In this document: positions 12,829 through 42,139 of the stretch, piece after piece | Layout of the letters: each line of letters opens with the position of its first letter | How positions within the stretch are numbered: position 1 is the stretch's first letter | Program-made: the position numbers and the translations under genes | Notes under the pieces: model-generated | The model's input: only the letters and a program-made list of their open reading frames with translations | Database searches by the model: none | What the model was told of the DNA's origin: nothing | DNA from: Candidatus Woesearchaeota archaeon | GTDB taxonomy: Archaea; Nanobdellota; Nanobdellia; SCGC-AAA011-G17; JACPNG01 | DNA length: 61,172 nucleotides | Reading direction: 5' to 3' | NCBI GenBank assembly: GCA_964455655.1 | Contig: CAYVWZ010000001.1 | Coordinates: forward strand, 58,825 to 119,996

Positions 12829-13371
12829 TTATAGATTTGTTGCTGAAGAACGCTTAAGTCTTACCCTCTTTGTCCAAACCTTTGTACTCACATAGGCAAT
12901 AACATCATTATCAGGGTCATAAATCTCAACCATGTCTAAGTCCGCTCTTTCAAAAACCCTCATTCCCTCTCTTGGTTTTTTACTTAATACTACTTTAAGC
13001 TTCTGATACTTTTTAGGTTCTAAGAAAAAATCAATATCACCCACATAATGACGATAAGGATCTGGCTTTCTGATGTAGAGATGAGTATAGACCGTTTTAG
13101 GAATATCTCCTCTTGCAGGCATTATTATTGGCTTGCGTAATAGGAAATATTTTTGATTAGGATTATCAGAAGGAAATGTTAATTTGTTACGTACCTTGAT
13201 AAGCTGCTCATATTCAGAAGTATAATGACAAAATATACTTATATTCCCAGCATTATCAAGATATTTACCAAAATTTTGTTTACATAATTTATATGCTTGA
13301 ACATGAATATATGTTAATGCTTGAAAGAACACTTTTTCTGATTTTATAGGACTAAATCTATAGAGTTTCAT
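12829..13371 (-). CDS. Hypothetical protein coupled to the cfa/FAD-oxidoreductase operon
   Basis: ATG 13371 overlaps the TGA of the oxidoreductase (ATGA). Confidence 0.7.
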   Translation of the reverse strand: MKLYRFSPIKSEKVFFQALTYIHVQAYKLCKQNFGKYLDNAGNISIFCHYTSEYEQLIKVRNKLTFPSDNPNQKYFLLRKPIIMPARGDIPKTVYTHLYIRKPDPYRHYVGDIDFFLEPKKYQKLKVVLSKKPREGMRVFERADLDMVEIYDPDNDVIAYVSTKVWTKRVRLKRSSATNL

Positions 13372-14714
13372 CCGCGCTTTACACACTTTTCATATAAGTT
13401 CTTCTGAATACCTTTAGGATCATACTTCTTCTTTAATGCATCATAGACAGGTTTATTGTATAACCTCCAGAATTCATCCTCAGGATAATAAGAAGTGGAA
13501 TAGAGAGATTTCTTACCATTTAATTGAGAAACTTTTAGTTCTATTAATCGGTTATAATGACCCTCTTCAAATGTTGTAGGCATAACATCCCAAAAACCAA
13601 AATTAATGTACAACGTTAGAGGATCCATAGGATATAAGTCATACTTCACCTTAGGATCAACAGCCATTGTAGGGCAAACCCAAATAGGACGAATAGGTAT
13701 CGTTTCTAAAAAGAACCTCAAGAAAGTAGAACAATTTTTCAAAGGAAGCTCAACATCCTGCACAACAGACTCTTTCTTATCATTTTTAGGGAGAATCTGA
13801 CTTGCAAACCTACGTATCTTCCAATAGGACCTTGAGTTCAAAAAAGGCTTTGCAAAAAATCTCAGAACTTTGTTTTGAACACCAAAATGCTTTGAACACC
13901 AAAACCAATCAGTATCCCAACGCCAAATATAATCATGAACTGTTAAAAAATCCTGAGAACGCTTAGGAATTGTTTGATAAAAAATATTCATATACGTATA
14001 ATTACTTGTATACGGAGCAGAATCAACAAAATTAGCAGTAACAACATATAAGTCTTTTTCATTAAAAATAACACCATCAACAAAATCAAGAGAATTATCA
14101 ACACGCGCTTTCAAACACATTGCACCTAACTCAGCAAAATATGTTTCAGAATCAGTAAACTTATGATATTCTAACCTCACAAAAGGTTTTACAAGAACGA
14201 GTTTAACCTTTAACCTTAACGCATACCCTAAAGTACCATAGGAATTAGGAAAACCATAGAACAAATCACGATATTCATTCTTTGGCGTAGCAATAACAAT
14301 AGAACCATCAGGAAGCAATATTTCCATCTCAAGAATTGTTTCATGAACTAAACCAAACTTAAATGAAGAAGACTCAATACCAACACCAGTAACTGCACCA
14401 CCAATAGTAATAGTCTTTAATTGAGGAACAACCGTAGGCATACAATTATACTTTAATGTTTCATGAACTAATTCTTCATAAGTAGTCATACCCTCAACAT
14501 CAACCACTAAACTCTTCGAATCAACACTTAAGACTTGATTAAAATTCTTCACATCAATCTTTTTCTTCTTACCCTCAGCACGATAACGAAATAAATTAGA
14601 AGAAGACTTTTTCAAACCGAGAGAAACACCCTCTCTTGCAGCAGCTTTTACTTCATCAATAAGCTTTGACTTCTTCAATTCAAAAAGAGTATAGGGATTA
14701 ACGGACTGACTCAT
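13368..14714 (-). CDS. FAD-binding oxidoreductase, Rv3719/BfaA(TmsA)-like (DHCR24-related)
   Basis: SNLFR, VVPQLKTITIGGAVTGVGIESSSF, FPNSYGTLGY, WRWDTDWFWCS, VVQDVELP, GKKSLYS, KKKYDP match my recollection of the Rv3719 family; start moved to ATG 14714. Confidence 0.85.
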   Translation of the reverse strand: MSQSVNPYTLFELKKSKLIDEVKAAAREGVSLGLKKSSSNLFRYRAEGKKKKIDVKNFNQVLSVDSKSLVVDVEGMTTYEELVHETLKYNCMPTVVPQLKTITIGGAVTGVGIESSSFKFGLVHETILEMEILLPDGSIVIATPKNEYRDLFYGFPNSYGTLGYALRLKVKLVLVKPFVRLEYHKFTDSETYFAELGAMCLKARVDNSLDFVDGVIFNEKDLYVVTANFVDSAPYTSNYTYMNIFYQTIPKRSQDFLTVHDYIWRWDTDWFWCSKHFGVQNKVLRFFAKPFLNSRSYWKIRRFASQILPKNDKKESVVQDVELPLKNCSTFLRFFLETIPIRPIWVCPTMAVDPKVKYDLYPMDPLTLYINFGFWDVMPTTFEEGHYNRLIELKVSQLNGKKSLYSTSYYPEDEFWRLYNKPVYDALKKKYDPKGIQKNLYEKCVKRG

Positions 14715-15819
14715 ACCCACCGGGAACTCCGCCTTTTGAGAGCACAATCTGCCATAATTGGATCTTACGAGCACGGAATTGACCTGCTGATGTCATCAAA
14801 TAAAAACGCCACATACGATAGAATCGTTCACCATACTGCGCTTTATACTTATGCCAATTCTTTCTAAAATTAGCATCCCACGCGAGTAACGTCTTATCAT
14901 AATCAGGACCAAAATTATGCCAATCTTCTAAAACAAATAATCCTTCAAAAGCATTGGTTAATTGAACAGCAGAAGGAAGCATTGAATTAGGGAAGATGTA
15001 TTTGTTAATCCAAGGATCAGTATTCTTTACAGACTTATTTGTTGCAATCGTATGACACAAGAATAAACCACCTGGTTTTAAACAACTATATGCTAATTTC
15101 ATAAATTTACGATAATTCTTGTATCCAATATGCTCACACATACCAATAGACACCACCTTATCATATAGACCAGAAGCATCTCGATAATCAGCATGAACAA
15201 TCTTTACAGGAAGACCTTTTGTTATTTTACGAGCATATTCAACTTGCTCTTTTGAAATGTTATAAGAAGTAACCTCAACACCATACTTTTCAGCAGCATA
15301 CTTTGCAAAGCCACCCCAACCACAACCTAACTCTAAAACTTTTTCACCTTTCTTTAATTTTAGTTTTTTACACACAAGATCAAGCTTATTTTTTTGAGCT
15401 TGATTAAGATTTTTAGCATTCTTCCAATACCCACAGGTATATTGCATATAGTCAGGATCAAGCATATCATGATAGAAATCATTACCTAAATCATAATGTT
15501 CTTTCGCAACTTTCTGAGAACCACTACGCGATTGCATGTTTAATACCGTAGCACTGAGATAGAGTTTTATTGTAGCAAAAGAAACTAATTCTCTCTGCAC
15601 TTGCGCATTAAATAGACGCGTAAAAAACACATCAAGATCTTTTACATCCCACCATCCATCCATATAAGCTTCCCCAGCAGCTAATGTACCACCAGAAAAA
15701 ATTCTCCTATAGAGACGCTCATCATGAACTTGAATATCCCAAGGATGAGGACCATTAATCTTAATATCAGCTTTAGAAAGAAGCTTTTCAGCCTTCTTCT
15801 TATACACATTTTTAGCCAT
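14698..15819 (-). CDS. cfa: Cyclopropane-fatty-acyl-phospholipid synthase family methyltransferase
   Basis: HYDLGNDF, MLD..MQYTCGYW, AQKNKLDLVC.KL, LELGCGWGG, YIFPNSMLPS, EDWHNFGPDYDKTL.AW, ERF.RMW. Confidence 0.93.
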   Translation of the reverse strand: MAKNVYKKKAEKLLSKADIKINGPHPWDIQVHDERLYRRIFSGGTLAAGEAYMDGWWDVKDLDVFFTRLFNAQVQRELVSFATIKLYLSATVLNMQSRSGSQKVAKEHYDLGNDFYHDMLDPDYMQYTCGYWKNAKNLNQAQKNKLDLVCKKLKLKKGEKVLELGCGWGGFAKYAAEKYGVEVTSYNISKEQVEYARKITKGLPVKIVHADYRDASGLYDKVVSIGMCEHIGYKNYRKFMKLAYSCLKPGGLFLCHTIATNKSVKNTDPWINKYIFPNSMLPSAVQLTNAFEGLFVLEDWHNFGPDYDKTLLAWDANFRKNWHKYKAQYGERFYRMWRFYLMTSAGQFRARKIQLWQIVLSKGGVPGGYESVR

Positions 15820-15843
15820 TGGGAAGTATTATTTTCGCTCTCC

Positions 15844-16485
15844 TTAAATAACTTTCTTTAGAATAGGAATAATCTTAGATAGGTTATTAGAGTCTACCAC
15901 TACCGAAGCAACTTCTTTAAGATCCTTTGAGTCACTATTAAATGCAATAGAGAACCCAACCTCCTTAAACATAGGAATATCCTTATATGAATCCCCTACA
16001 TAAATAACCTCTTTTAAAGAAATGTTTAAACTTTTACATAACTTCTTAAGAACTTTATTCTTCTCACCAAAACCCGCACCAATAGGCCAAACAAATTCAC
16101 CAGAAACTTTGTTATTTTTAATAACTAATTCATTTGCAAAAATATAATCTATACCATACTCCTTCTGAACCCTCTTTGCAACATCTATACTTGAAGCACT
16201 AATAATAGCTGTCGTGATCTTTTTTGTATGAACAAACTTTAAAGTTTTTCCAACACCTGGAAGATACTCAATAGACTGCACTAGTTTTGTGTAAGGAGTA
16301 GCATCTTTACCTCTCCATAACTTATGAACAACTTCTTCTACTAACTTGTTATAATCAGAATGGAGATATTTCTCCGTAAGAATTTTACCCTCTTCTAAAG
16401 TATTAAATGACTTATGAACCTCTAACCAAAAATTAATATCTTTAAAAAAAACACCATCCATATCAAAACAAATTAGTTTAAACAT
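15844..16485 (-). CDS. HAD-family hydrolase (phosphoserine phosphatase-like, subclass IB)
   Basis: FDMDGV, IISAS, K.K.L, YVGDSYKD. Confidence 0.85.
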   Translation of the reverse strand: MFKLICFDMDGVFFKDINFWLEVHKSFNTLEEGKILTEKYLHSDYNKLVEEVVHKLWRGKDATPYTKLVQSIEYLPGVGKTLKFVHTKKITTAIISASSIDVAKRVQKEYGIDYIFANELVIKNNKVSGEFVWPIGAGFGEKNKVLKKLCKSLNISLKEVIYVGDSYKDIPMFKEVGFSIAFNSDSKDLKEVASVVVDSNNLSKIIPILKKVI

Positions 16486-16759
16486 TTTTAAGAGCCTCTT
16501 CTAGATTTACCTCATCTCTTGGAGTTCTTAAGTTTAATCTATCAACAACTTTTCTTAATTCTGGAAGAGCAACACCCATATTAATCTCATCATATCGTTG
16601 AACAACTTCGTATGCACGTCCATAAGTACTCCGGTCAGTCTGAATTCTTTCGTTAAGCTTTGAAGCATTACCCGTAAAAATAAGCTCATACTTTACTCCC
16701 GTATAAACAATAGCACCACAATTAGTTCCCCTCGCTCTTGAAGAAATGACTGGAGGCAT
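16478..16759 (-). CDS. Hypothetical protein (orphan-like)
   Basis: 93-aa ORF, TATAAAAG box about 20 nt upstream, overlaps the HAD start. Confidence 0.55.
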   Translation of the reverse strand: MPPVISSRARGTNCGAIVYTGVKYELIFTGNASKLNERIQTDRSTYGRAYEVVQRYDEINMGVALPELRKVVDRLNLRTPRDEVNLEEALKNV

Positions 16760-16835
16760 AGAGTACTATTGCCCCAACTTCCTTTTATACCCCTTACAAA
16801 AACTTTTATAAACCCTACAACGGGTTGGAATCCTT

Positions 16836-17537
16836 ATGAAAGTAGCAATTTTATACTCAGGAGGAAAAGACTCCAATTATGCACTGTACGAAGCTCAGAA
16901 AAAAGGCTGGGATGTCAGATACTTACTCTCTATCAAACCAACAAGAACAGACTGCTACTTATTCCACTTTGCAACCGTAGAACATACACCAAAGCTAGCT
17001 GAAATGGCTGGAATTAAACATGTACTCAAAACCTGCTCTGTAGCAGATCCTGTACAAGAAGCAGAAATTGTCAAAAAAGCAGTAGAAGAACAAGAACACA
17101 TCGACGCAGTAATCCTCGGAGGAGTAGGACTCCAAGAAACACAAATCAGAAGCGTACGAAACGCATTATCATCTTTAGGAATAGAAGTATTCCCCTCACA
17201 CGCAGAATTAACAGAAGAAGAAAGCATGATTAACATGATCAACCTAGGATTCAAATTTATGATCACCCAATATGCTACTGACGGATTAAACCAATCGTGG
17301 TTAGGAAAAGAAATAACCAAAGAAAGTTTTGCAGAATTACAATCATTATCACTAAAACACGGATTTAACCTTCTCGGAGAAGGAGGATATTACGACACCT
17401 TAGTTATTGGAAGCCCTTGCTTTAACGGAAAAGAATTATCAATCATAACCTCAAATAAAGTACAAGAATCTGCTTATTCAGGACACTTAATCATTACAGA
17501 AGCAGCAATTGTACCTCTACAAAAAATTTCTCAATAA
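16836..17537 (+). CDS. dph6: Diphthine--ammonia ligase (Dph6/DUF71 PP-loop ATPase)
   Basis: LYSGGKDS PP-loop, YLFH, GEGGYYDTLV. Confidence 0.8.
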   Translation: MKVAILYSGGKDSNYALYEAQKKGWDVRYLLSIKPTRTDCYLFHFATVEHTPKLAEMAGIKHVLKTCSVADPVQEAEIVKKAVEEQEHIDAVILGGVGLQETQIRSVRNALSSLGIEVFPSHAELTEEESMINMINLGFKFMITQYATDGLNQSWLGKEITKESFAELQSLSLKHGFNLLGEGGYYDTLVIGSPCFNGKELSIITSNKVQESAYSGHLIITEAAIVPLQKISQ

Positions 17538-17789
17538 ATGAAAACTTTAACAAGCAAATTATTTCAGGATACTGCATTCTCTGAATTCTATAACCCTACT
17601 CTGGTTCGTGCCATCTTTCATGCACAGCATGTAACAGCAGAAACAATGATTAGAGAGGATCAACCTTGCAAAGACGAATTCATTCAAGGAGTTAATGTGT
17701 ATAGAGATGGTGTGAGAACTTTTAGAGGGATAGCAGAATATCTACAATTACTCACAGAACACGAAAGAACATATGGCGTAAGATTATAG
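17538..17789 (+). CDS. Hypothetical protein
   Basis: 83-aa ORF starting immediately after the dph6 stop. Confidence 0.55.
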   Translation: MKTLTSKLFQDTAFSEFYNPTLVRAIFHAQHVTAETMIREDQPCKDEFIQGVNVYRDGVRTFRGIAEYLQLLTEHERTYGVRL

Positions 17790-17799
17790 AAGTATTTCT

Positions 17800-18372
17800 T
17801 TAACCCTTTCTGTATAATAAACTCTCATCAATACGTTGCCAAGCATGTAATTCTTCAGGTTTGAACCAGATTTTAATCTCACGCTCAGCTTCATCAACGG
17901 CGCCTGATGAATGAATTAAATTTTGAATAGGACGCTCTAACTGATCAGCCATCGTATAACTCTCCATACTAAAATCACCACGGATCGTGCCAGGCATGGC
18001 ATCAGCAGGAGCAGTAGGACCACATAATTTACGCACATGAGCAACAGCATTATGACCCTCAATAACTAAAGCAACAATAGGGCTCATTGCAATATACTCA
18101 ATAAGAACATTTCTCACCCATTTACCTTGTTCAAGAGCAGTACGATTAAGCTTAACACCCTTCTTTTCATACGCTGAAAGAGTTTTGTTACCAACACTCA
18201 CTAACCACTCTTCATCATCAGCATAATGCTTCCCAGCAAGATCCTTATCCGCATAGACCATCTTCATACCAACCATTTTCAGACCAGCTTTTTCAAAACG
18301 AGAAATAATTTCACCAACAAGAGCTCTTTGAACCCCATCAGGTTTGATTAAAACTAACGTGCGTTCGATCAT
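17800..18372 (-). CDS. ndk: Nucleoside diphosphate kinase (long-insert form)
   Basis: ERTLVLIKPDGVQRAL, PGTIRGDF, catalytic NLIHSS. Confidence 0.95.
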   Translation of the reverse strand: MIERTLVLIKPDGVQRALVGEIISRFEKAGLKMVGMKMVYADKDLAGKHYADDEEWLVSVGNKTLSAYEKKGVKLNRTALEQGKWVRNVLIEYIAMSPIVALVIEGHNAVAHVRKLCGPTAPADAMPGTIRGDFSMESYTMADQLERPIQNLIHSSGAVDEAEREIKIWFKPEELHAWQRIDESLLYRKG

Positions 18373-18381
18373 AGAATATCC

Positions 18382-18597
18382 TTACTTTTGTTCTTTATGT
18401 TGAGCAGAAGTAATAGCAGCTCGACGAGCATTATATCCTTCTTCAGTCCACGCTGTCTCACGAGGTTTTCTGTTTAAGCTTAACATGTTCTTTTCACATT
18501 TACGAGAATCAAAGTATAAGAGTTTACCATCTTTCTTTACAAACATTTTACCTGTACCAGGACGAAGTTCAGAACCACAAAATGTACACTTAACCAT
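18382..18597 (-). CDS. rpl24e: 50S ribosomal protein L24e
   Basis: KCTFCG...[21 protein letters not shown]. Confidence 0.95.
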
Positions 18598-18936
18598 TTA
18601 TGCCCCTCTTCGCGTTTGTGTTAGTTTACGAGCTTCAATTTCAGTCTCTCGTAACATAAGAATATCTTTCACTTTAATAGGACCTTTAACATTTCTACGT
18701 AAGACTTTATTCTTTTCGTGACCTTCTAATAATTTACAACGAACCTGAACAACTTCTCCACGAGTACCTGTTCTTCCAACAATCTCTTCAACAATAGCTG
18801 GAGTAGCATATGTAAATAATCCTTTACTACCATCTTCCTTCTTCTGAGTAGGACCTTGCGCCTGTTGTTGAGGCTGTTGATTTCTACTCTGACCATGAGG
18901 TCTGTTTTGTTGATTTTGTTGTGGAGGTTTAGCCAT
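18598..18936 (-). CDS. rps28e: 30S ribosomal protein S28e with Gln-rich N-terminal extension
   Basis: [34 protein letters not shown]. Confidence 0.93.
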
Positions 18937-18938
18937 TT

Positions 18939-19274
18939 TTATTTGAGTTTACTTGCAATTTCTTCAATAAGATCTTTTGCTCCGCCTTCTTGAACAATTG
19001 CAACAGCAGTTGTTGGGCGTTTCAAACCAGCAGCATTTCCTAGTTCTTCTTTACTAGCAACAGTAATTGCTGGAATCTTCTTTTCTTTTGCAAGAGGATC
19101 TAAATGCATGATAACTTCAGCAGGATTAACATCTTTTGCGAACAAAACTAATTTCGCAGAGTTCTTTTCCATTGCTTTGGTAACTTCGTTAATACCTTTC
19201 TTAATTTTACCAGAATTTTTAGCTACTTCTAAAGCTTCTAATGCTTTATCCGTGATGTCTTTTGATGCTTCCAT
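18939..19274 (-). CDS. rpl7ae: 50S ribosomal protein L7Ae
   Basis: [36 protein letters not shown]. Confidence 0.95.
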
Positions 19275-19277
19275 AGT

Positions 19278-19309
19278 ACAAACCTCCCCTACGTGAGATC
19301 ATAGGTTGT
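19278..19309 (-). promoter_or_regulatory. K-turn in the rpl7ae 5' UTR overlapping the Shine-Dalgarno
   Basis: Transcript AACC-UAU-GA-UCU-CACGUA-GGG-GA-GGUU: 4-bp C-stem, 3-nt bulge ending in U, tandem GA/AG; SD GGAGGU lies in the 3' strand. Confidence 0.75.
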
Positions 19310-19395
19310 TCGAAGGAACGAACTCTAACTGGGGTTTAAAAAGGTTTTGTTAGTCTTGACAAGACTTATAAGTTTTTAGGAATGAATTTAGAGAC

Positions 19396-29724: not shown

Positions 29725-29802
29725 ATGGCAACAAAAAAAGCTAAGCCTACCACCAAAAAAACTATTAAAAAATCACCAAACATCTGTATTGATTGTGATT
29801 AA
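29725..29802 (+). CDS. Small Lys-rich peptide with C-terminal CxxC (MATKKAKPTTKKTIKKSPNICIDCD)
   Basis: AGGAGG SD 8 nt before the ATG, TATTTAAG box upstream; absent from the ORF track because of its size. Confidence 0.55.
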   Translation: MATKKAKPTTKKTIKKSPNICIDCD

Positions 29803-29806
29803 ACTT

Positions 29807-31723
29807 TTATTGCGTAGGCTCCACCAAGAATACCATACGGACGCCACGCACTTTATTCTTAACCTGCACAATTGCTAATGCAACTTGATCAAGACCATCA
29901 GGAATAAACCCAATATCACATTCCACAATACCATCGCCAACAGCCTTTGCAGAAGCTGGATCAATATTAATACTTAATCCTGAAACAACACTGAGAATAT
30001 CAGCAAAGACCCCTAAACGATCTTCTACAACAACCCTCATCGTAATCCTCCCTTGATACTGCGCATTCCAAGAAGCAGTTAAGAGACTCTTCCTTGACTT
30101 TACAGATAAATGATCGCAACCCTTTACATGGACGGCATACTGATCGTTCGAAGAGAGATATGCTACAAGAGGCTGATTAGGAACGGGATGACAGCACCGC
30201 GAAAGTTTAATATGAGCATGAGGAACATTCTGAACTAAGACAAGACCCTCACCAAAAGAACGAGGAGGGATCTTACCTGTTGACGCAGGAAGTTGGCCAT
30301 GCTCACGTAAAAACTGACGGATTTTAGCTTTTGCCTGAGCAGTCTTTACAAATTTTAACCAATCACGATTAGGAGTAGCATTCTTACCTGTTAAAATATT
30401 AACAATCTCACCCGTTTTTAGTTCATAACGCAATGGAACCATACGACCATTTACCACTGCACCCGTAGCATGATCACCAATACTTGAATGAATCTTATAT
30501 GCAAAATCAATTGTTGAAGAACCCTTAGGAAGAGAGACAACATCCCCCTTCGGAGTCATAATATACACCTCATCATCAAACAAATCAATCTTTAAGAAAT
30601 CCATAAACTCAGCAGTATTTTGAGACTGTTGTTGGAATTCAAGAATATCTCTCAACCATGACAACTTCTTATCAAACTTCTTATCACCCTCAAGATGCTT
30701 ATATGACCAATGAGCAGCAATACCCTCCTCAGCAATCATATGCATATCCCTCGTACGAATTTGAAACTCAACAGGCTGCTTCAATGCAACAACAGCAGTA
30801 TGAAGTGATTGATAGAGATTCTTCTTTGGAGTAGCAATATAATCTTTAAACTTACCCTGAATAGGAGGCCAAATACTATGAATAATACCTAAAATTTCAT
30901 AACATTCCTTCACCGAATCAGTAATAACTCTTAATCCAATAAGATCATTGACTTCCTCAAACGTACGATTCTTCGTAATCATTTTTTTGTAAATACTATA
31001 GAAATGCTTAGGACGACCAACAATCTCAGCCTTAATACCATGAGCATCTAACTTTGCTTGTAATAATTCCTTAATACCCTTAATATCATTCTCTCGATCT
31101 TTTCTCGTCTTCCCAAAACGTTGCTTAAACTTTTGATAAATCTCAGGCTCTAAGACCTTAAAACTCAAATCTTCTAACTCCCACTTTAGAGAAGCAAGCC
31201 CTAAACGATACGCAAGAGGAGCATACACATTCAAATTCTCACGAGCAATACGCACTTGACGATCCCTCGGAAGCGCATCTAACGTTCGCATATTATGCAA
31301 TTTATCAGCTAGCTTAATCAATACCACACGCAAATCTTTAACAGAAGCAAGCAATAATTTACGAACAGACTCAGCATCCTCCTCTTCAACAGAAGTAGGC
31401 TTTAATTGCTTCATTTTTGTCACACCATCAACAAGCATAGCAATCTCATCAGAAAAATCACGACGAATATCAGCCAATGAATACTTTGTATCTTCAATAG
31501 TATCATGCAAGAGAGCAGCAGCTAATGTAGACTTGTCCATACGTAGTTTTGCTAACGTTAAGGTAACCGCAAGAGGATGACTAATATATGGCTCGCCAGA
31601 AACACGCTTAGCACCCTTGTGAAGCTCATCAGCCTTCATATAGGCACGCTGAACAATATCAACATCCTTCGGAGAGAGATATTTTACTAATTCTTGTCGT
31701 AGGTCATCAAAAGTCATGTGCAA
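29807..31723 (-). CDS. rel: Long RelA/SpoT homologue ((p)ppGpp synthetase/hydrolase with TGS, ZFD and ACT domains)
   Basis: HD domain ALLHDTIEDT, IKLADKLHNMRTL; synthetase GRPKHFYSIYKKM, KFKDYIA, YQSLHT, EFQIRT; TGS DFAYKIHS; CCHPVP; ACT DRLGVFADI. Confidence 0.95.
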   Translation of the reverse strand: MHMTFDDLRQELVKYLSPKDVDIVQRAYMKADELHKGAKRVSGEPYISHPLAVTLTLAKLRMDKSTLAAALLHDTIEDTKYSLADIRRDFSDEIAMLVDGVTKMKQLKPTSVEEEDAESVRKLLLASVKDLRVVLIKLADKLHNMRTLDALPRDRQVRIARENLNVYAPLAYRLGLASLKWELEDLSFKVLEPEIYQKFKQRFGKTRKDRENDIKGIKELLQAKLDAHGIKAEIVGRPKHFYSIYKKMITKNRTFEEVNDLIGLRVITDSVKECYEILGIIHSIWPPIQGKFKDYIATPKKNLYQSLHTAVVALKQPVEFQIRTRDMHMIAEEGIAAHWSYKHLEGDKKFDKKLSWLRDILEFQQQSQNTAEFMDFLKIDLFDDEVYIMTPKGDVVSLPKGSSTIDFAYKIHSSIGDHATGAVVNGRMVPLRYELKTGEIVNILTGKNATPNRDWLKFVKTAQAKAKIRQFLREHGQLPASTGKIPPRSFGEGLVLVQNVPHAHIKLSRCCHPVPNQPLVAYLSSNDQYAVHVKGCDHLSVKSRKSLLTASWNAQYQGRITMRVVVEDRLGVFADILSVVSGLSINIDPASAKAVGDGIVECDIGFIPDGLDQVALAIVQVKNKVRGVRMVFLVEPTQ

Positions 31724-31750
31724 AAATAAAATTAAAGGTTGTTTATATAG

Positions 31751-32083: not shown

Positions 32084-32124
32084 ACCTTTTGGATAACGCT
32101 AAAAATATAAAAATCTATCTTTGC

Positions 32125-33213: not shown

Positions 33214-33279
33214 AATCTTACCGAGAGAGCACCCTTTTTAAAGATATATTCAATAAAATCAAGAGGAATCTTTCATAAC

Positions 33280-34071: not shown

Positions 34072-34114
34072 CCAACCATAAACGATGGCTAGAACCTTTT
34101 AAATGTTTCTGAGA

Positions 34115-34579
34115 TTATGCTTCTTTCTTAAACCCTTGAGAAGCAGTCCATTCTTGGGAAAATGCATAAAATTCTTTTGTTTGATTAAAAAATTCCATTA
34201 AACGCTCTTGATTCACTTCAACCTTATCAGCAATGAGCGTAACATTCTTACGATATTCTTCCCTTCCCGTAATAGTAGCATTAGAAATTGTAATGAGCAT
34301 CCTATAAAGCCTAATCCAATTCTTCACATGTTTATCATTTTTGAAAATTTTATCTTCTAATAATTTAGCTTTTTCGAGACTGGTACGAGGAAGAACATCA
34401 ATCATCTTCTTTTTCTTTGCAACCTCTAGAATATCATCAAAAATATAGTGAATAGCCTCAATAAGACGTTGAATCGTATTAAGAATAACATCAGCAGTTC
34501 TTGTATACTTCAATGTTACATAAATCAGGTGGTCCACACGCTGTAATTGTCCCTTTGCTGTTTCAGTATCTTCCAACAT
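34115..34579 (-). CDS. Hypothetical helical protein (probable paralogue of 34563-35045)
   Basis: RVDHLIYVT motif near the N-terminus. Confidence 0.65.
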   Translation of the reverse strand: MLEDTETAKGQLQRVDHLIYVTLKYTRTADVILNTIQRLIEAIHYIFDDILEVAKKKKMIDVLPRTSLEKAKLLEDKIFKNDKHVKNWIRLYRMLITISNATITGREEYRKNVTLIADKVEVNQERLMEFFNQTKEFYAFSQEWTASQGFKKEA

Positions 34580-35045
34580 TCACTAGTACCTTGTTTACCT
34601 TCTCAATGAAAGGCTTTGATAGAGTAAGATAATTTTTAACGCTTTCTATTGTGATTGATTTCATTCTGTAATCATCCTCAAATATTACTAGTTTATCACG
34701 CTTTGCTATTTGCATTGCACTTTTCCTATTAAACTCTAATAATCTCTGAATATCAATCAACATAACCATCACTTCTCTATTGAAATTGTATCTTTCTGCA
34801 CATTTTGTCTTAAACACGTCTATACGGGTCATTAAGTCAGAAGTATGAGGAGGAACACGCTTAAACATACGCTCATAAAGCAATATAGCATCCATTCCCG
34901 CTGAAACACCAACAAAAATGTCCTCTATAATACTCAATAAGAGCTTTGGCTCACGAACCGTAGGATAGGTCGTATATGCTAGATGATCAGCAGTAGAAAG
35001 CTTGTTATTTGCAATACCCACAAGAGCCTGAATCCTATCTTCCAT
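34563..35045 (-). CDS. Hypothetical helical protein (probable paralogue of 34115-34579)
   Basis: TADHLAYTT motif near the N-terminus. Confidence 0.65.
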   Translation of the reverse strand: MEDRIQALVGIANNKLSTADHLAYTTYPTVREPKLLLSIIEDIFVGVSAGMDAILLYERMFKRVPPHTSDLMTRIDVFKTKCAERYNFNREVMVMLIDIQRLLEFNRKSAMQIAKRDKLVIFEDDYRMKSITIESVKNYLTLSKPFIEKVNKVLVNVGRY

Positions 35046-35083
35046 AACCTGGCCACAAGAAGTCGGAATTAATAAGGATTATG

Positions 35084-35413
35084 TTACTCTTCTTGAAGCT
35101 TCAAAATAGCAGCAGCAAGATCCCCTTCTTCTTCAAGAGCTTGTTTTGCTGCTTTTTCAGAACAACCCGTCTGTTCCATAACCGTCTTGATATCTTCTTT
35201 AGAAAATAACTCTTTAGCCCTTATTCTTACTTCACCAACAATTTGAAAGGTCTCTTGACCCATCATGTTAACTTTGGTAACTTGAGGATTCTCAATAATC
35301 ATTTCTTCTGAAGAAGTACGAATAATAACTTCCGTAGCATCAATCTCTTCTTGCTTGATACCAAGCTTTTTCATCGCTTTTTCCATCTCACGAGGATTCA
35401 TACCGGGAAACAT
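35084..35413 (-). CDS. nac: Nascent polypeptide-associated complex protein
   Basis: MNPREMEKAMKKLGI, MMGQETFQIVG, UBA EDIKTVMEQTG...GDLAAAIL. Confidence 0.95.
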   Translation of the reverse strand: MFPGMNPREMEKAMKKLGIKQEEIDATEVIIRTSSEEMIIENPQVTKVNMMGQETFQIVGEVRIRAKELFSKEDIKTVMEQTGCSEKAAKQALEEEGDLAAAILKLQEE

Positions 35414-35450
35414 AAGAAAGTTTAGAAATTAAGTGTATAAAAATGTTAGC

Positions 35451-35744
35451 TTATTCTGATTTTATGATCACAAACCCATTAGCTCTTGCACGGGCAAGTT
35501 CAGACTGAATAACTGCTGGATCATCACGATCGATGAGAGGAAGATCGGGACGAATTTGTATATGATCATAGGTAGTCTCTCCAATAATAACACCACCAGA
35601 AACTGCCCACCCACATAAACCTCTTGCTACATAATACTCTTGTTCTGTTCTATAACCACCTGAGAAATCACGCACCTTACACGGTCCTTCAGAAGAATCT
35701 TTAAAATCGCATAATTTACAAAACGTATCAATTGTCATGTTCAT
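35451..35744 (-). CDS. Hypothetical protein (orphan-like, Cys motif CKLC)
   Basis: ATG overlaps the secG stop. Confidence 0.55.
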   Translation of the reverse strand: MNMTIDTFCKLCDFKDSSEGPCKVRDFSGGYRTEQEYYVARGLCGWAVSGGVIIGETTYDHIQIRPDLPLIDRDDPAVIQSELARARANGFVIIKSE

Positions 35745-35896
35745 AATAAATAATGAGCAAGTAATGCAAGAACAGTAATTACCACAATAATACCCACTAC
35801 TACTTTCGGAGGAATTTCTATCTTACTCTTATAATCGTCAAAATAACGAATAATTCCTCCACCACTAGAGGGCATTTGAATTCTGTCGTCTGCCAT
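35741..35896 (-). CDS. secG: Preprotein translocase subunit Sec61beta/SecG
   Basis: MPSSGGGIIRYFDD, I.IPPKVVV, single TM; start ATG 35896. Confidence 0.9.
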   Translation of the reverse strand: MADDRIQMPSSGGGIIRYFDDYKSKIEIPPKVVVGIIVVITVLALLAHYLL

Positions 35897-35927
35897 ACTC
35901 TTTCTGACTTTCAAGGGTTTAAAAAGG

Positions 35928-36803
35928 TTACTCCCTCGCAACCTCTAACAAACTCAACCTTGGCAATACACGAGCTTCAGATCCTTGATGCATCCTTGGG
36001 GCTCCATTCCATGAAGACCAACGAGAACGAACACAGGACTTTAATCTCTCATTATACGAAGTAATAGCACCAACATGCTTTTCAAATAATCCTAGCCCCG
36101 CAGTTAAGTACACACTCGTAATATGTGTAGGACCAAGAACCCTCAACTCTTTCTGCATATTACGACCTGCGTCTGTTGCCATCATGTACGTAACAAAGAC
36201 ATCCGTATGAGAATGATGAGCACCTTCTAATACTTCAGCAGAACGTTCTAATCCTTCCATTTGCGTATGCAACCCTTCATACTTTTTCTTTTTCTCATAC
36301 AAATCCATACGCAATGCACGCAATTTCATGCGCGCCTCAACACCTTCACGAAAAGAAGGCTTTTCTTTTAACAACGCTTCAACCTCACCACACTCCTGAG
36401 AACGAGAACGAATACCTTCTTCAAGATCATCATATACTTCACCAATAGCAAGAACTTGCTCATACCGTTCACGAACTAATTCACGAATACCAACACCATC
36501 CCTATGATGCAAATGACATAATCCATCAAGCTCAACATTCATATACCCTAGAGAGCTCATCATAACATCATACACACTATGCAAATCGCTCGCATTAGAA
36601 CCATCAAAGACCGCTTGGCGTAACCTCCCAACAGTTCTTCCCATTATGGAAGGACTTAAGACACGCTGAACAATACGATCATACTTACGCAATGAAGCAT
36701 CAAACGTTCTTGATTCTTGCATAATCCTTTGCAATGAACTACCCTCATCAATGCGCGCATTATCAGTCGTGACGAGAGCACTTGTTTCCATATCGTAAGA
36801 CAT
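35928..36803 (-). CDS. Hypothetical coiled-coil protein
   Basis: GGAGGTGA SD before ATG 36803; heptad-rich E/R helices. Confidence 0.65.
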   Translation of the reverse strand: MSYDMETSALVTTDNARIDEGSSLQRIMQESRTFDASLRKYDRIVQRVLSPSIMGRTVGRLRQAVFDGSNASDLHSVYDVMMSSLGYMNVELDGLCHLHHRDGVGIRELVRERYEQVLAIGEVYDDLEEGIRSRSQECGEVEALLKEKPSFREGVEARMKLRALRMDLYEKKKKYEGLHTQMEGLERSAEVLEGAHHSHTDVFVTYMMATDAGRNMQKELRVLGPTHITSVYLTAGLGLFEKHVGAITSYNERLKSCVRSRWSSWNGAPRMHQGSEARVLPRLSLLEVARE

Positions 36804-36966
36804 ATTCATCACCTCCATGATGATACTTATACTGAGCATCAGGAATACGCTCTTCACAAGGAGATTCATACTTCGGTTTAGGAGTATCCACACACGCATC
36901 ACAAGAGTTTCCCAGAGTAGCACCCATAACAAACACTAACGGATACACTAATTTTTCTAAACTCAT
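36763..36966 (-). CDS. Small exported Cys-containing protein
   Basis: GGAGGTGA SD; hydrophobic N-terminus followed by SCDAC. Confidence 0.5.
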   Translation of the reverse strand: MSLEKLVYPLVFVMGATLGNSCDACVDTPKPKYESPCEERIPDAQYKYHHGGDEYVLRYGNKCSRHD

Positions 36967-37475
36967 TCTTCACCTCCAAACTCATGAAGATAGGAACGCA
37001 CTTCACCAACCTTTTGACGAACAATATTTTGAACAGAATCACGAACAATTCTTGAACGAACACTCATTGGAAGAGAATCCCAAATCTTTTCAGGACCTAA
37101 TTGCTCAACAACATCAGCACGCTCTTGAGGAGAATAAGAATTCCATTCTGCATAGAGCAAACGAGCTTTTTCATCATGAGAAGCATGAGACCATGCATGA
37201 TAGACATCACCAATAACAACATCATTATCACGCTCCACAATTTCATAACCAACATCGCCATCTTTTAAGAAAAACCCAAGACCCTGATCAGTTTTTTGTG
37301 CAACAATCTCTAATGAGAATGCTCTTTCTTTCTGAACAAAACTTGGAGCAACTGCATCATGACGAAAACGCCAATTGAGTACTTCTCTACGAAGAGGTTC
37401 GTATCCTTGATACATACCTGCTGCGCCTACTACTGCTCCAACAGCAATGCTAGCCATATACTTTTTGAATGTCAT
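36963..37475 (-). CDS. Hypothetical protein with N-terminal membrane anchor
   Basis: MTFKKY plus hydrophobic helix; stop overlaps the next start. Confidence 0.65.
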   Translation of the reverse strand: MTFKKYMASIAVGAVVGAAGMYQGYEPLRREVLNWRFRHDAVAPSFVQKERAFSLEIVAQKTDQGLGFFLKDGDVGYEIVERDNDVVIGDVYHAWSHASHDEKARLLYAEWNSYSPQERADVVEQLGPEKIWDSLPMSVRSRIVRDSVQNIVRQKVGEVRSYLHEFGGEE

Positions 37476-37600
37476 AAGAACACTAAGAGTAAAGCTCTTA
37501 AAGTGCCTTTATGAGAGAAAACAGAAAGAAACATCACCTCTTTTGAAAAAACAAAGGAAAACACTAACAGTTTACAAAAAAAATAAACGTATACAACACG

Positions 37601-38215
37601 ATGAACCTCAAGAAAACTATAGGAAAACACATTGAACAAGGCATGTTACGAGATTTAAAAAAAACCTTGAAAGAAAGTGTTGAACCATACCTTAAACCAG
37701 GAATAAAAATATTAGATATTGGCTGTGAAAAGAATGGAAGCATAGAATACAACGAAATAGAAATACCCTTTACCCTTATAGGATACGACTCATCAGCAGA
37801 AGACATACGTTTATTCAACGAAAAATTTGCAAATAAAAAACCAACCACAAAAGTCATCAATATTGAAACACTCTCTAAACTACCTGAAACCTATGATATT
37901 ATTATGTTCTCAGGAGTGATACAATACTTACACCACCCCAACAAAACACTTACCATAATCTATAATGCATTAAATCCAAATGGAATTTTTGTGATTGCAA
38001 CACTCAACAATAATAATTGGTTGCGAAGATTACATGTTATCTCAAGAAGAATAAAAACAGAAGCAGGAGAACAACACATTTACTCTGACAAAGAATTAGA
38101 AGATATACTCATAAAAAACAAATTCCGTATCATAACAAAGAAATCATCAGACATTATAGCATTACCAAGAACTATACAAACAAACTTGATCTATGTGTGC
38201 ACGAGGGAACCATGA
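37601..38215 (+). CDS. Class I SAM-dependent methyltransferase
   Basis: ILDIGC, IGYDSS, YDIIMFSGVIQYL, LNPNGIF. Confidence 0.8.
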   Translation: MNLKKTIGKHIEQGMLRDLKKTLKESVEPYLKPGIKILDIGCEKNGSIEYNEIEIPFTLIGYDSSAEDIRLFNEKFANKKPTTKVINIETLSKLPETYDIIMFSGVIQYLHHPNKTLTIIYNALNPNGIFVIATLNNNNWLRRLHVISRRIKTEAGEQHIYSDKELEDILIKNKFRIITKKSSDIIALPRTIQTNLIYVCTREP

Positions 38216-38544
38216 ACATCTTCAGAAAAATGGGAATGTACCTTGATGCCTACCTTAAAGGAGTTATTATTGAAGGCACTATTGAACATAAAACACGAAG
38301 AGGAAATGAAGTTTATTTCTGCCTCCAAGACGATGACGGAGAACGATACTTATTTGGAGAAAGCATTCTTAACGGCGATGACACACTCCTTGTAACCATG
38401 AAAGAAGGAGATCATGTACGCGTAAGAGTAGAAAACGGACTCTTCAGCAGACCATTTAATTTTTCATTAGAAGCACAACAAGTTGAAGGATTCATGCACG
38501 TACGCACATTACGATGCGAAGAACTAGAAAAACGCCTCTCTTAA
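38212..38544 (+). CDS. Hypothetical protein (possible OB-like beta fold)
   Basis: ATG overlaps the upstream stop; beta-rich, EGDHVRVRV. Confidence 0.55.
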   Translation: MNIFRKMGMYLDAYLKGVIIEGTIEHKTRRGNEVYFCLQDDDGERYLFGESILNGDDTLLVTMKEGDHVRVRVENGLFSRPFNFSLEAQQVEGFMHVRTLRCEELEKRLS

Positions 38545-38586
38545 CACAAACTTTTAATACTTATACTCAAGTAGCTATTTGAAAAG

Positions 38587-39111
38587 GTGATAGCAATTCT
38601 TACAAAAAAAGACATAACAAAACATTATCATACCATACGCAAACTCCCACAACAAAAAATAACAAGAGATTACAAACTCAAAATTTTACAATTAGCAACA
38701 TTCTTCTTTATGGGAAGCATTATAGGAAGCCTCATAGACACTGTATATAGAAGCATTATCGATGGGCACTGGTCCTATCAAAGCTATTTTGGACAATTGC
38801 TAGGATTACCCGTTCCCTTCATGCCCGTATACGGATTAGGACTTGTCTTACTCTATCTTCTCATCACCTACCTACGAGAAAGACCTCTCCTCATTAGAAT
38901 CTTTATTTATGCAGTATGCTTCACCATGCTCGAATTCATAGGGGGAGCATTCACACAAGCAACATTAGGAATGAGATTATGGGATTATTCTAACAATCCC
39001 CTCAACTTCCAAGGACACGTAGATATTTTACATACACTTTATTGGATACTCCTAGGACTTGCAACAGAGAAGATCATTCAATTCCACAAGAAATTATGGA
39101 ATCATGCTTAA
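38587..39111 (+). CDS. Putative ABC transporter permease family membrane protein (CmpB/DUF1113-like)
   Basis: FF.GS..G...D, PFMPVYG.G, LE...G.......RLWDYSNNPLNFQGHV. Confidence 0.75.
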   Translation: MIAILTKKDITKHYHTIRKLPQQKITRDYKLKILQLATFFFMGSIIGSLIDTVYRSIIDGHWSYQSYFGQLLGLPVPFMPVYGLGLVLLYLLITYLRERPLLIRIFIYAVCFTMLEFIGGAFTQATLGMRLWDYSNNPLNFQGHVDILHTLYWILLGLATEKIIQFHKKLWNHA

Positions 39112-39709
39112 CTAACTTCTGCATTAAATGATTCAAATTATCACGAGAGCCCTCAACAAGATAAATAGTCTTACCTTGCTTTTCATTCTTATCAATATGC
39201 ACACTTAACAAACGATATGAAATACCAAATGATTCAAGCTCTTGCTGCAACTCAGCTTCTAACAAACTTAATTTTGCTTGAATAATAATCTTCTTTTGAT
39301 ATGAACCAATACCATAATGCTCAAGAATTTTATCAGAGAACACAACAACCCACACTAATGCATACAAAATAGCAGCAATACCATACTGACCAATACCAAT
39401 AATCAACCCAACAATAGCAAATAACCAAATAGCAGAAGCTGTTGTAAACCCAAAGACCTTATCAGAATTCTTAATCAATGCACCAGCACCTAAGAAACCA
39501 ATACCCGTAACAATAGCACCTAATAAGACAAAACCATTCTCCAAAAAGTTTGAAACCGCTAATACTCCTAAGGCACACGCACCTAAGGAAACGAAAATAA
39601 ATGTACCAAATCCAACAGGCTTGTGAGAACGCTGACGTTCATACCCAAAGACCATTGCTGCAATAAATGTTATTACCAACTTTACTGCAATAATCATAAT
39701 TTCTGCCAT
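39074..39709 (-). CDS. mgtC: MgtC/SapB family protein
   Basis: GYERQ...KPVGFGTF, IVTGIGFLGAG.I, GFTTASAIW. Confidence 0.9.
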   Translation of the reverse strand: MAEIMIIAVKLVITFIAAMVFGYERQRSHKPVGFGTFIFVSLGACALGVLAVSNFLENGFVLLGAIVTGIGFLGAGALIKNSDKVFGFTTASAIWLFAIVGLIIGIGQYGIAAILYALVWVVVFSDKILEHYGIGSYQKKIIIQAKLSLLEAELQQELESFGISYRLLSVHIDKNEKQGKTIYLVEGSRDNLNHLMQKLVKHDSIISCGIE

Positions 39710-39785
39710 GATGGCCCGTATCTTGAAATCTCTATTTAATCATTTGTTACTACATCTTAAGAAAATACTATTTACTAAGGAAGAA

Positions 39786-40466
39786 TTATTCATGAAAATG
39801 AACTTCCTCATGACGAGGAATAGCACCCGTTAGAGAAGAAATAAGCCATTCTAGACCTCTAAAGAACCTTATCTTATCTAACAACGGATTAAGCCAACCT
39901 GTTGTAATACAATAGGACTCTGTATACGGCTTTGAATGATGCTTCTTATGAGCTTTCGGAGATAAAATAACACCATACTTTTGCAACCAAGAAATAATCT
40001 TATTTTGATGAGCCTGATGAGACCATTTATGAACTTGATTCGTTAACATTGAAAAGAAACAAAGAGAACCTAGAAACACAACAGCAAAAATACTTCCACG
40101 AGAATCTAAAGAAATATTTGCAGTAGCAATAATAACAGGAACAACAACTAAGAAATTCAAAATATTTGCTTCAAAAAAATCATGACGCGTAATACCTAAC
40201 TGATCAACATGATGTAACCTAAAAGATTTCAGAACATACGTACCAAGAAGAGGAATCCTCGAATCACCCCACGTATCACAAGCCCAATGAACCAAACCAG
40301 AGAACAAATCAGCAGCAAGAATACCTAAAAAAATCCCAAGAACAACATCAACAACTTGTAATTCAACAAAATATAATGCACGAAGAAGTTTAATAAAAAA
40401 AATAGCAATCGTTGATAACGCAACAACACCTAACAACCACGTAGCAAATCTACCCCACGAAATCAT
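39786..40466 (-). CDS. carF: CarF/TMEM189 (PEDS1) family lipid desaturase
   Basis: ADLFSGLVHWACDTWG, FRLHH, TRHDF, NQVHKWSH, HKKHH, YCITTGWLNPLLD. Confidence 0.88.
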   Translation of the reverse strand: MISWGRFATWLLGVVALSTIAIFFIKLLRALYFVELQVVDVVLGIFLGILAADLFSGLVHWACDTWGDSRIPLLGTYVLKSFRLHHVDQLGITRHDFFEANILNFLVVVPVIIATANISLDSRGSIFAVVFLGSLCFFSMLTNQVHKWSHQAHQNKIISWLQKYGVILSPKAHKKHHSKPYTESYCITTGWLNPLLDKIRFFRGLEWLISSLTGAIPRHEEVHFHE

Positions 40467-42137: not shown

Positions 42138-42139
42138 TC

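Follow-up and report, generated by a model that had tools for sequence, protein, structure and literature searches.

Intact bacterial-type lipid-anchoring and phospholipid-modifying genes in a woesearchaeal genome suggest a life partly on bacterial membrane lipids

The draft genome of a tiny Candidatus Woesearchaeota archaeon (Woesearchaeales, DPANN) carries intact bacterial-type genes for anchoring proteins to lipids (Lgt, LspA) and for modifying ready-made phospholipids (Cfa with a BfaA-like partner, CarF), and no lipid synthesis pathway was found in it, which suggests that the cell lives partly on bacterial membrane lipids. The most economical reading, to which we give a probability of about 0.55, is that this cell acquires bacterial-type phospholipids by scavenging and then modifies them in situ. 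The initial annotation of the window, i.e. the whole stretch of 61,172 nucleotides that was analysed, had listed genes for Cfa, a BfaA-like protein, Lgt and CarF (Table 1), and profile scores, full length and catalytic residues all confirm that they are present and intact.

Table 1. Features of the window (positions are those of the window)
Feature	Position	Strand	Basis or remark
Putative FKBP-type PPIase with lipoprotein signal peptide	4523..5017	-	Lipobox pattern match
180-aa gene, no assigned family	12829..13371	-	Overlaps bfaA stop (ATGA)
bfaA-like FAD oxidoreductase, predicted methylene-fatty-acyl reductase	13368..14714	-	FAD_binding_4 and BfaA identity
cfa, E. coli-type cyclopropane-fatty-acyl-phospholipid synthase family methyltransferase, BfaA-partnered subtype	14698..15819	-	CMAS and NF008686
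lgt, prolipoprotein diacylglyceryl transferase	22523..23296	-	Pfam LGT and TIGR00544
mgtC-family gene, conserved carF neighbour	39074..39709	-	Pfam MgtC, 87 bits
carF/PEDS1-like membrane lipid desaturase	39786..40466	-	Pfam Lipid_desat
Archaeal 23S and 16S rRNA operon with spacer tRNA	42126..46835	-	Rfam matches

As the genome is a metagenome-assembled draft in 37 contigs (completeness 87.9%), the bacterial-type genes might have come from a co-occurring bacterium through an assembly chimera or a binning contamination, an explanation that is close to refuted. A single 120-kb contig carries all the genes, flanked by archaeal hallmark genes and by the rRNA operon, whose Rfam matches (LSU_rRNA_archaea, 2482 bits; SSU_rRNA_archaea, 1408 bits; tRNA, 58 bits) mark the contig as archaeal and bear out the earlier statement that lipid and archaeal rRNA genes share it; the genes around them include those for diphthamide synthase, RNase P p30 and GluRS. 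Furthermore, the GC, GC3 and codon use of cfa, bfaA, lgt, lspA and carF are all inside the usual range of the genome, whose estimated contamination is 0.41%. Among 151 relatives whose genomes were assembled independently, about 95% also have Lgt and LspA, and CarF and the Cfa-BfaA pair recur on other archaeal contigs beside Sec61-beta, TBP and TrmB genes.

The genome revealed no pathway for making core lipids of either the archaeal or the bacterial type. Neither this genome nor any of the 151 of the order has GGGP synthase, which was detected in 4/4 archaeal controls; UbiA gave no match above cut-off, and no CDP-alcohol phosphatidyltransferase is present in the genome. Searches with E. coli queries returned neither PlsX/Y/B/C, CdsA, PgsA, PssA, Psd, ClsA or GpsA nor FabH/D/F/Z, AcpP, FadD or Aas, most of these lipid-synthesis negatives being single queries against an 87.9%-complete genome. 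PlsC-family acyltransferases occur in 25% of the genomes of the order.

The Lgt and LspA genes are core genes of the lineage and of the phylum. Indeed, Lgt is found in 143/151 genomes of the order and 184/201 of the phylum, and LspA in 145/151 of the order, which indicates long-term retention. The Lgt protein scores 272 bits against Pfam LGT and 243 bits against TIGR00544 (cut-off 119) and keeps, in an alignment to PDB 5AZB, Y26, H103, R143, N146, E151, G154, Y235, R239 and E243, all the residues essential in E. coli Lgt being retained; its gene starts 7 nt past the end of the gene for a secreted S8 subtilase. LspA, encoded 11 kb outside the window, passes the TIGR00077 cut-off and displays the motifs GNAIDR and FNLADS. 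In a lipobox census, 32 of the 1080 ORFs fit the G+LPP pattern, with cysteine at +1 enriched 4- to 17-fold over other residues. These ~30 proteins, one of them within the window (the putative FKBP-type PPIase, lipobox MKKFLIMMLVLGLVIIGG-C), are candidate Lgt/LspA substrates, and with LspA they complete a predicted lipoprotein pathway of the orthodox bacterial type, Lgt followed by LspA. Since no Lnt was found in the genome with an E. coli query, mature lipoproteins would be diacylated. A two-enzyme pathway devoid of Lnt is the form present in many Gram-positive bacteria, which the archaeal pathway resembles.

The Cfa protein scores 272 bits against Pfam CMAS and 562 bits against the NCBIfam equivalog of E. 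coli-type Cfa (NF008686, cut-off 400). It is 48% identical to E. coli Cfa and, when aligned to PDB 6BQC, keeps C139, E239, H266, I268, Y317, the GCGWGG motif, and the bicarbonate-site and SAM-binding residues; the sequence cannot discriminate between a cyclopropane and a methylene product. The archaeal control Methanosarcina acetivorans, whose textbook membrane is isoprenoid, also has a CMAS-family match, which weighs against the scavenging reading. The end of cfa and the start of bfaA overlap by 17 nt. The bfaA product shares 46% identity along its full length (E 7e-143) with the BfaA of Thermomonospora curvata, an enzyme shown by experiment to be active, and 45% with the M. smegmatis homologue given in the supplement of the T. 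curvata BfaA paper. Such a CMAS and FAD gene pair recurs in a Nanoarchaeota MAG, Legionella and Patescibacteria. It is tightly coupled in three archaeal genomes of two families and present in 3/151 genomes of the order, in which full-length Cfa occurs in 18/151 (12%) and BfaA orthologues in 3/151 (2%). In trees, Cfa groups with other BfaA-linked Cfa proteins (support 98/99) in a clade that takes in Patescibacteria, which are also described in the literature as lipid-dependent symbionts. Cfa-BfaA is a mobile two-gene cassette, common to Patescibacteria and Legionella, that was sporadically acquired by horizontal transfer. The adjoining 180-aa gene is not a conserved member of the cassette: it has no match in Pfam or NCBIfam, belongs to a small family (130 cluster representatives) and has a homologue (P0243) sited elsewhere, beside a GTPase and an ABC transporter.

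CarF scores 201 bits against Pfam Lipid_desat (CarF/PEDS1/FAD4 family), retains 9/9 family-invariant histidines and stays below the cut-off of the NCBIfam CarF equivalog (198 vs 500 bits). Among the matches listed, those with names are myxobacterial, from Bdellovibrionota, from kinetoplastids (Leishmania, Novymonas) or from Acanthamoeba, and none is a plant FAD4. Only one of the 151 genomes of the order (<1%) carries it, and its nearest relative (61% identity) has the same gene neighbours on an archaeal contig. The gene order CarF-MgtC-CmpB-...-methyltransferase is repeated on a related contig (L044) that also has Sec61-beta, and this conserved archaeal synteny argues that CarF is not a contamination. 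CarF is a sporadic horizontal acquisition, separate from that of Cfa-BfaA.

The initial annotation had seen a single acyl-lipid and lipoprotein toolkit in these genes, a view that does not survive their separate histories: a phylum core for Lgt/LspA, and a handful of genomes for the others. The rarity of Cfa, BfaA and CarF also means that they say little about lipid use across the lineage. Only Lgt and LspA might be physiologically relevant, Cfa-BfaA and CarF being recent horizontal passengers with little or no membrane role or with another hydrophobic substrate. The patchy spread and the several independent acquisitions to which the trees point agree with this explanation, which we nevertheless consider improbable: the composition of cfa, bfaA and carF matches that of the host genome, the genes are full length with every catalytic residue retained in the Cfa and CarF alignments, the carF neighbourhood is maintained in a relative whose protein is only 61% identical, and the Cfa-BfaA coupling is tight across the two archaeal families.

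In the reading that we prefer, scavenging with modification in place, the cell would obtain ready-made membrane lipids from a partner, bacterial-type glycerophospholipids being at least a part of them. Lgt would transfer the diacylglyceryl group of phosphatidylglycerol to the lipobox cysteine, and LspA would next cut off the signal peptide of the lipidated protein. Cfa would add a SAM carbon across a cis double bond in acyl chains that the membrane already contains, and BfaA would reduce the resulting methylene group to a methyl branch in mid-chain, as happens when 10-methyl fatty acids are made. CarF, using oxygen, would desaturate a 1-O-alkyl ether lipid to a plasmalogen, i.e. a vinyl ether; exposure to oxygen is plausible, given the Fe/Mn superoxide dismutase encoded in the genome. 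The substrates of all the retained families are lipids of the existing bilayer, as a scavenging cell would need. Murein-degrading proteins are reported in small Woesearchaeota (Castelle 2021, PMC8204110), which makes bacterial partners plausible. The earlier proposal that bacterial lipids are acquired and then modified thus stands in part: the enzymes are intact, no lipid synthesis was found and the retained families use ready-made lipids, whereas the enzyme families are what points to acyl lipids as substrates.

For Lgt and CarF, archaeal ether lipids are alternative candidate substrates. The conserved residues of Lgt bind the phosphate and glycerol of the head group, which are also present in archaetidylglycerol, and hence do not distinguish acyl from isoprenoid donors; CarF chemistry acts beside the ether oxygen, so that archaeol could in principle be a substrate. 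Extended to the whole set, this gives enzymes adapted to isoprenoid lipids scavenged from an archaeal host, in which Lgt would put archaeol from archaetidylglycerol on the lipobox cysteine, CarF would desaturate the phytanyl carbon next to the ether oxygen and Cfa would methylate unsaturated isoprenoid chains. Haloarchaeal lipoproteins do bear thioether-linked archaeol, Lgt is near-universal in the phylum whereas only about 12% of the order carries the acyl-specific Cfa, and the known CarF substrate is, like archaeal lipids, an ether. In addition, DPANN with archaeal hosts are said, in PMC11868695 (citing Castelle 2018 and Dombrowski 2019), to rely on host lipids. However, archaeal lipids are built on glycerol of the opposite stereochemistry and contain no cis-disubstituted double bonds, Cfa matches the E. 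coli enzyme at equivalog level along its entire length, N-terminal domain included, and its partner resembles a reductase shown to be active on methylene fatty acids. The identical cassette is carried by Legionella and Patescibacteria, organisms with acyl lipids, and a quarter of the genomes of the order have PlsC-family acyltransferases while none has GGGP synthase. For the whole set, this explanation seems unlikely.

Neither the presence of Cfa in Woesearchaeota nor the notion that host lipids are modified is new: Cfa genes were reported in five Woesearchaeota MAGs (Zhang 2024, PMC10936187), and Woesearchaeia were proposed to modify lipids from a bacterial host (PMC11868695). Both studies share with ours the lineage and the core idea of bacterial-type lipid-modifying genes in archaea unable to make lipids; they do not mention Lgt, LspA, BfaA or CarF, give no order-wide counts and do not remark that ready-made membrane lipids are the substrates of every retained enzyme. 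Our literature search found no report of Lgt, LspA, BfaA or CarF in archaea; archaea were recently said to have no Lgt or Lsp homologues and to use AliA/AliB instead (PMC12462473), and the plasmalogen pathway is described as unreported in Archaea (PMC13012113).

Compared with the E. coli system (Lgt, PDB 5AZB/5AZC, TIGR00544; LspA, TIGR00077), both archaeal proteins are above the curated family cut-offs and share all essential Lgt residues, both LspA aspartate motifs and lipobox substrates. The archaeal Lgt is shorter and does not align around E. coli residues 165-180, and its host lacks phosphatidylglycerol synthesis. The Cfa-BfaA cassette has the same two-gene layout as the actinomycete BfaB/BfaA system for 10-methyl fatty acids (Machida 2017, PMC5660069; Blitzblau 2021, PMC7791843), a Cfa-family methyltransferase followed by an FAD_binding_4 oxidoreductase, and its oxidoreductase is close to T. 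curvata BfaA along its full length. However, its methyltransferase belongs with E. coli Cfa and has 38% identity, in the catalytic domain only, to the divergent actinobacterial BfaB, and the cassette, whose product here is predicted, belongs to a separate clade with Legionella, Patescibacteria and Nanoarchaeota. Lastly, the archaeal CarF shares the PF10520 match and the nine invariant histidines with the plasmanylethanolamine desaturases CarF of Myxococcus xanthus and human PEDS1 (TMEM189); it differs from them by a shorter N-terminus (226 aa vs ~280) and by a genome in which no ether-lipid precursor pathway was identified, and, although below the equivalog cut-off, it shares 45-46% identity with the M. 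xanthus genome match that is presumed to be carF.

Cfa, a BfaA-like oxidoreductase, Lgt and CarF are all encoded in the window, where they match the CMAS, FAD_binding_4, Lgt and Lipid_desat families, respectively, and the observation made in the initial annotation is thus confirmed. This annotation had also read them as a toolkit remodelling bacterial-type lipids taken from a host or prey, an interpretation that is supported in part: the lipid enzymes are present and intact and core-lipid synthesis genes were not found in the genome (G000), the use of bacterial-type lipids being putative.

The genome, assigned to the DPANN order Woesearchaeales (Woesearchaeota), in line with the public names of its closest Lgt homologues, is a 0.93-Mb draft in 37 contigs, estimated to be 87.9% complete and 0.41% contaminated; the window spans 58825-119996 of one of them, a 120-kb contig (C1). 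A chimeric assembly at these loci, one of the refuting conditions named in the initial annotation, is disfavoured. Indeed, cfa, bfaA, lgt and carF are interleaved with genes encoding diphthamide synthase, RNase P p30 and an archaeal-type GluRS and with the rRNA operon; the GC content is flat across the window (~0.36) except in the rRNA genes; no lipid gene departs from the normal spread of the genome in GC, GC3 or codon use; and independent assemblies contain the same genes, again in archaeal surroundings. Given these archaeal neighbours, this typical composition and this recurrence in independent archaeal assemblies, an assembly artefact is very unlikely to be the source of the lipid genes. 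For a dN/dS estimate, synonymous sites would be either uninformative or saturated, protein identity with the closest relatives being either 99% or no higher than ~60-72%. A full-length RelA/SpoT homologue is a further bacterial-type gene of the same contig. The tRNA located in the 16S-23S spacer may carry an intron; ARAGORN, run over the 61-kb window, reports zero tRNA, this Rfam-detected one included.

Features of the window and of other loci of the genome (positions without prefix refer to the window; C1, contig carrying the window; C16, another contig; L001, locus on C1)
Feature	Position	Strand	Description
bfaA ORF	13368-14774	-	FAD_binding_4 domain
cfa	14698-15819	-	CMAS-family methyltransferase, 272 bits
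SerB-like HAD phosphatase	15844-16485	-	ends 24 nt before cfa start, same strand
lgt ORF	22523-23341	-	Pfam LGT, 272 bits
long RelA/SpoT homologue	29807-31723	-	full-length; HD_4, RelA_SpoT, TGS and ACT domains
carF	39786-40466	-	Lipid_desat (CarF/PEDS1/FAD4 family), PF10520 201.1 bits
archaeal 23S and 16S rRNA genes	42126-46835		
tRNA in 16S-23S spacer	45165-45276	-	112 nt, Rfam
lspA	C1:47537-47950 (L001 1483-1896)	-	137 aa; 10.9 kb before window start
divergent PF01553 (PlsC-family) acyltransferase	C16:13085-14002	+	305 aa, 39-40 bits
Fe/Mn superoxide dismutase	C16:16620-17222	-	Sod_Fe_C, 98 bits

The inventory of lipid genes that had been proposed as a check recovered LspA, and GGGP synthase, UbiA-family, fab, pls and PgsA genes were not found, negatives that come from an incomplete genome and mostly from single-sequence queries. 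GGGP synthase was found neither in G000 nor in any other genome of the order (0/151) by a search that detects it in all four archaeal control genomes. In G000, no UbiA-family match exceeds the cut-off and no CDP-alcohol phosphatidyltransferase was found; E. coli protein queries indicate the absence of PlsX, PlsY, PlsB, PlsC, CdsA, PgsA, PssA, Psd, ClsA and GpsA, as well as of FabH, FabD, FabF, FabZ, AcpP, FadD, Aas, DgkA and Lnt; and the UbiA, CDP-alcohol transferase and PlsC-like proteins of relatives, used as queries, gave zero matches. The genome encodes UppS and BacA, involved in polyprenyl carrier handling, and generic short-chain dehydrogenases. Within the same family, some genomes carry a CDP-alcohol phosphatidyltransferase (G114, G138, G130, G092 and G055) or a UbiA-family prenyltransferase (G035 and G055), and therefore head-group or prenyl chemistry varies within the family, GGGP synthase being absent throughout.

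The divergent PF01553 acyltransferase of contig C16 has an FPDGTR motif, and its first motif reads NHGPSQY in place of HX4D; acyl-ACP or acyl-CoA supply genes that could serve it were not found in G000. A GDSL/SGNH hydrolase is encoded 2 kb upstream. PlsC-family acyltransferases are present in 37/151 genomes of the order; their co-occurrence with Cfa was considered and rejected, as they show no enrichment among genomes encoding Cfa (4/18, against this background of 37/151).

Lgt is nearly universal in the order (143/151 sampled genomes, including 88 of the 90 high-quality ones) and in the phylum (184/201), as is LspA in the order (145/151), which marks both as ancient core genes of this lineage. 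The Lgt of the window covers positions 1-239 of the 240 of PF01790 (271.7 bits, cut-off 24.9) and passes TIGR00544 (242.9 bits, cut-off 118.9). According to a phmmer alignment to 5AZB, it keeps all the known essential residues of the E. coli enzyme, namely Y26, H103, R143, N146, E151, G154, Y235, R239 and E243 (E. coli numbering, which we assigned from the E. coli sequence). Its best 120 homologues are all archaeal-type, and public records already name these homologues Lgt in Candidatus Woesearchaeota. The compact LspA, which completes the Lgt pathway of the genome, scores 95.1 bits against PF01252, passes TIGR00077 (83.2 bits, cut-off 73.95) and shows both motifs of the catalytic aspartate pair (GNAIDR and FNLADS). 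Recent specialist literature states that no archaeal homologues of Lgt or Lsp are known (PMC12462473); their presence in G000 and its relatives corrects the statement that archaea lack both.

Lgt and signal peptidase II (LspA) occur together with lipobox-bearing candidate substrates in this genome. Indeed, 32 of its ~1080 ORFs fit the standard lipoprotein signal-peptide pattern, and a cysteine at position +1 is 4 to 17 times commoner in this census than any other tested residue, relative to amino-acid frequency. About 25 of the lipobox matches have a canonical appearance (such as LLTGC, LTAC or LAGC), among them that of the FKBP-type PPIase encoded in the window. Neither a PgsA (E. coli query) nor a CDP-alcohol transferase for making phosphatidylglycerol, the predicted donor of Lgt, was found in G000. 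A link between Lgt and the S8 subtilase encoded upstream was rejected, this linkage being absent in relatives; the signal peptide of the subtilase is an ordinary one, devoid of lipobox. In relatives, lgt can lie close to cfa: it directly adjoins a stand-alone cfa in G130 (locus L022, G130:C58; lgt 5402-6112, cfa 6226-7008), and in G129 (G129:C4) both genes share a contig, 11 kb from each other.

Cfa passes the equivalog model NF008686 of E. coli-type Cfa over both domains (562.1 bits, cut-off 400, residues 3-372) and shows 48% identity with E. coli Cfa over 367 aa; its bicarbonate-site residues (C139, E239, H266, I268 and Y317) and its SAM-binding motif are kept in an alignment to 6BQC. Queries from E. 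coli and from relatives found no fatty-acid or phospholipid synthesis genes in G000 that could supply its cis-unsaturated acyl substrate, which would therefore have to be scavenged. For the adjacent bfaA, on the same strand, the most probable start codon is the ATG at 14714, which gives an overlap of 17 nt with the cfa stop. The bfaA product is 46.5% identical over its full length (437 aa, E 7e-143) to BfaA of Thermomonospora curvata, an enzyme demonstrated to convert 10-methylene fatty acids into 10-methyl ones by reduction (PMC7791843), and 45.5% identical to the Mycobacterium smegmatis BfaA homologue (supplement of PMC7791843); it is thus predicted to be a methylene-fatty-acyl reductase. 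When used as a query against G000, it matches only itself.

Full-length Cfa is encoded by only 18/151 genomes of the order, and BfaA orthologues by 3/151 (G000, G098 and G109), each with Cfa adjacent. Cfa genes had already been noted in five Woesearchaeota MAGs (Zhang et al. 2024, PMC10936187). Same-strand pairs are found in G098 and G109, in a Nanoarchaeota MAG, where the pair adjoins TBP and TrmB genes, in Legionella and in Patescibacteria. Phylogenies, which the initial annotation had suggested for Cfa, Lgt and CarF, were obtained for Cfa and CarF. In the first one, a supported clade (98/99) unites the BfaA-linked Cfa from the window, G098, the Nanoarchaeota MAG, Patescibacteria and Legionella, apart from the stand-alone Woesearchaeal Cfa, which indicates that the pair moves as a cassette. 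A 180-aa gene overlapping the bfaA stop was considered as a third member of this cassette and rejected: its family is small and of unknown function, and the one homologue with informative context adjoins unrelated genes. The pair may be transcribed within a longer unit; upstream of it, the start of the SerB-like HAD phosphatase gene is overlapped by a 93-aa ORF.

The nine histidines H60, H85, H86, H95, H146, H150, H173, H176 and H177 of CarF are invariant across 15 aligned homologues, including myxobacterial, eukaryotic and archaeal ones, and the protein is 45-46% identical to its match in a Myxococcus xanthus genome (presumed carF). As it remains below the cut-off of the narrow CarF equivalog NF045946 (198.5 bits, cut-off 500), it is classified, from its sequence, as a predicted PEDS1-type family member and not as an equivalog. 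CarF is encoded by G000 alone in the order (1/151). Its nearest homologue (61% identity) is carried by an archaeal contig that displays the same CarF-MgtC-CmpB-methyltransferase order and encodes Sec61-beta. In the CarF tree, the protein of G000 groups with three environmental sequences in a small clade, and two other archaeal CarF fall outside this clade, which suggests several acquisitions. The Fe/Mn superoxide dismutase encoded by contig C16 is consistent with exposure to oxygen, which an oxygen-dependent CarF would require. Recent specialist literature describes the plasmalogen pathway as unreported in Archaea (PMC13012113).

Globally, these data do not bear out a single toolkit: there are three modules with three histories, namely the core Lgt/LspA, the Cfa-BfaA pair (3/151) and CarF (1/151). 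They lead us to put at roughly 0.55 the probability that some lipids of this cell are bacterial-type. The cell would scavenge ready-made membrane lipids, Lgt and LspA would lipidate and process ~30 surface proteins, Cfa and BfaA would turn cis-unsaturated acyl chains into mid-chain methyl-branched ones, and CarF would use oxygen to convert alkyl-ether lipids into vinyl ethers. Each retained enzyme family acts on lipids that are already in the bilayer, which matches the needs of a scavenger; that Patescibacteria also carry the Cfa-BfaA cassette agrees with such scavenging. The main rival explanation, in which Lgt and CarF would use archaeal ether lipids obtained from an archaeal host, seems rather unlikely, although the sequences of Lgt and CarF are compatible with either reading; the Cfa-BfaA pair, rare in the order, argues for acyl chains.

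A broader and more doubtful proposal can tentatively be made: the whole Woese-/Pacearchaeales radiation (GTDB phylum Nanoarchaeota) might lie across the lipid divide, with membranes built from scavenged bacterial G3P diacyl, sometimes alkyl-ether, phospholipids, with Lgt-LspA as core machinery and with lineages gaining enzymes for in-place tuning (cyclopropanation, mid-chain methyl branching or vinyl-ether formation). In that case, G000 would count as one of the best-equipped genomes, and the products of its CarF would be the first plasmalogens of an archaeon.

Textbooks set archaeal ether-isoprenoid membranes apart from bacterial ester-acyl ones, and this divide is central to debates on early cell evolution and on the origin of eukaryotes. 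Bacterial-type lipids are the known substrates of four ordinary enzymes encoded by G000, all amenable to assay, which, together with the lack of GGGP synthase matches throughout the order, makes the lipid choice of abundant uncultured archaea directly testable. The question of bacterial lipids is important and open to direct assay, the enzymes being predicted from the genome and the putative lipid use being what we infer from them. The central hypothesis, that of modified scavenged lipids, has already been published; CarF and the pairing of BfaA with Cfa in an archaeon, the order-wide counts and the retention of only those enzymes that act on ready-made lipids are new. No mention of BfaA or CarF in archaea was found in the literature; BfaA and CarF/PEDS1 extend the list of enzymes encountered in archaea. 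What is unexpected is the host: the lipid enzymes of G000 are themselves ordinary members of known families.
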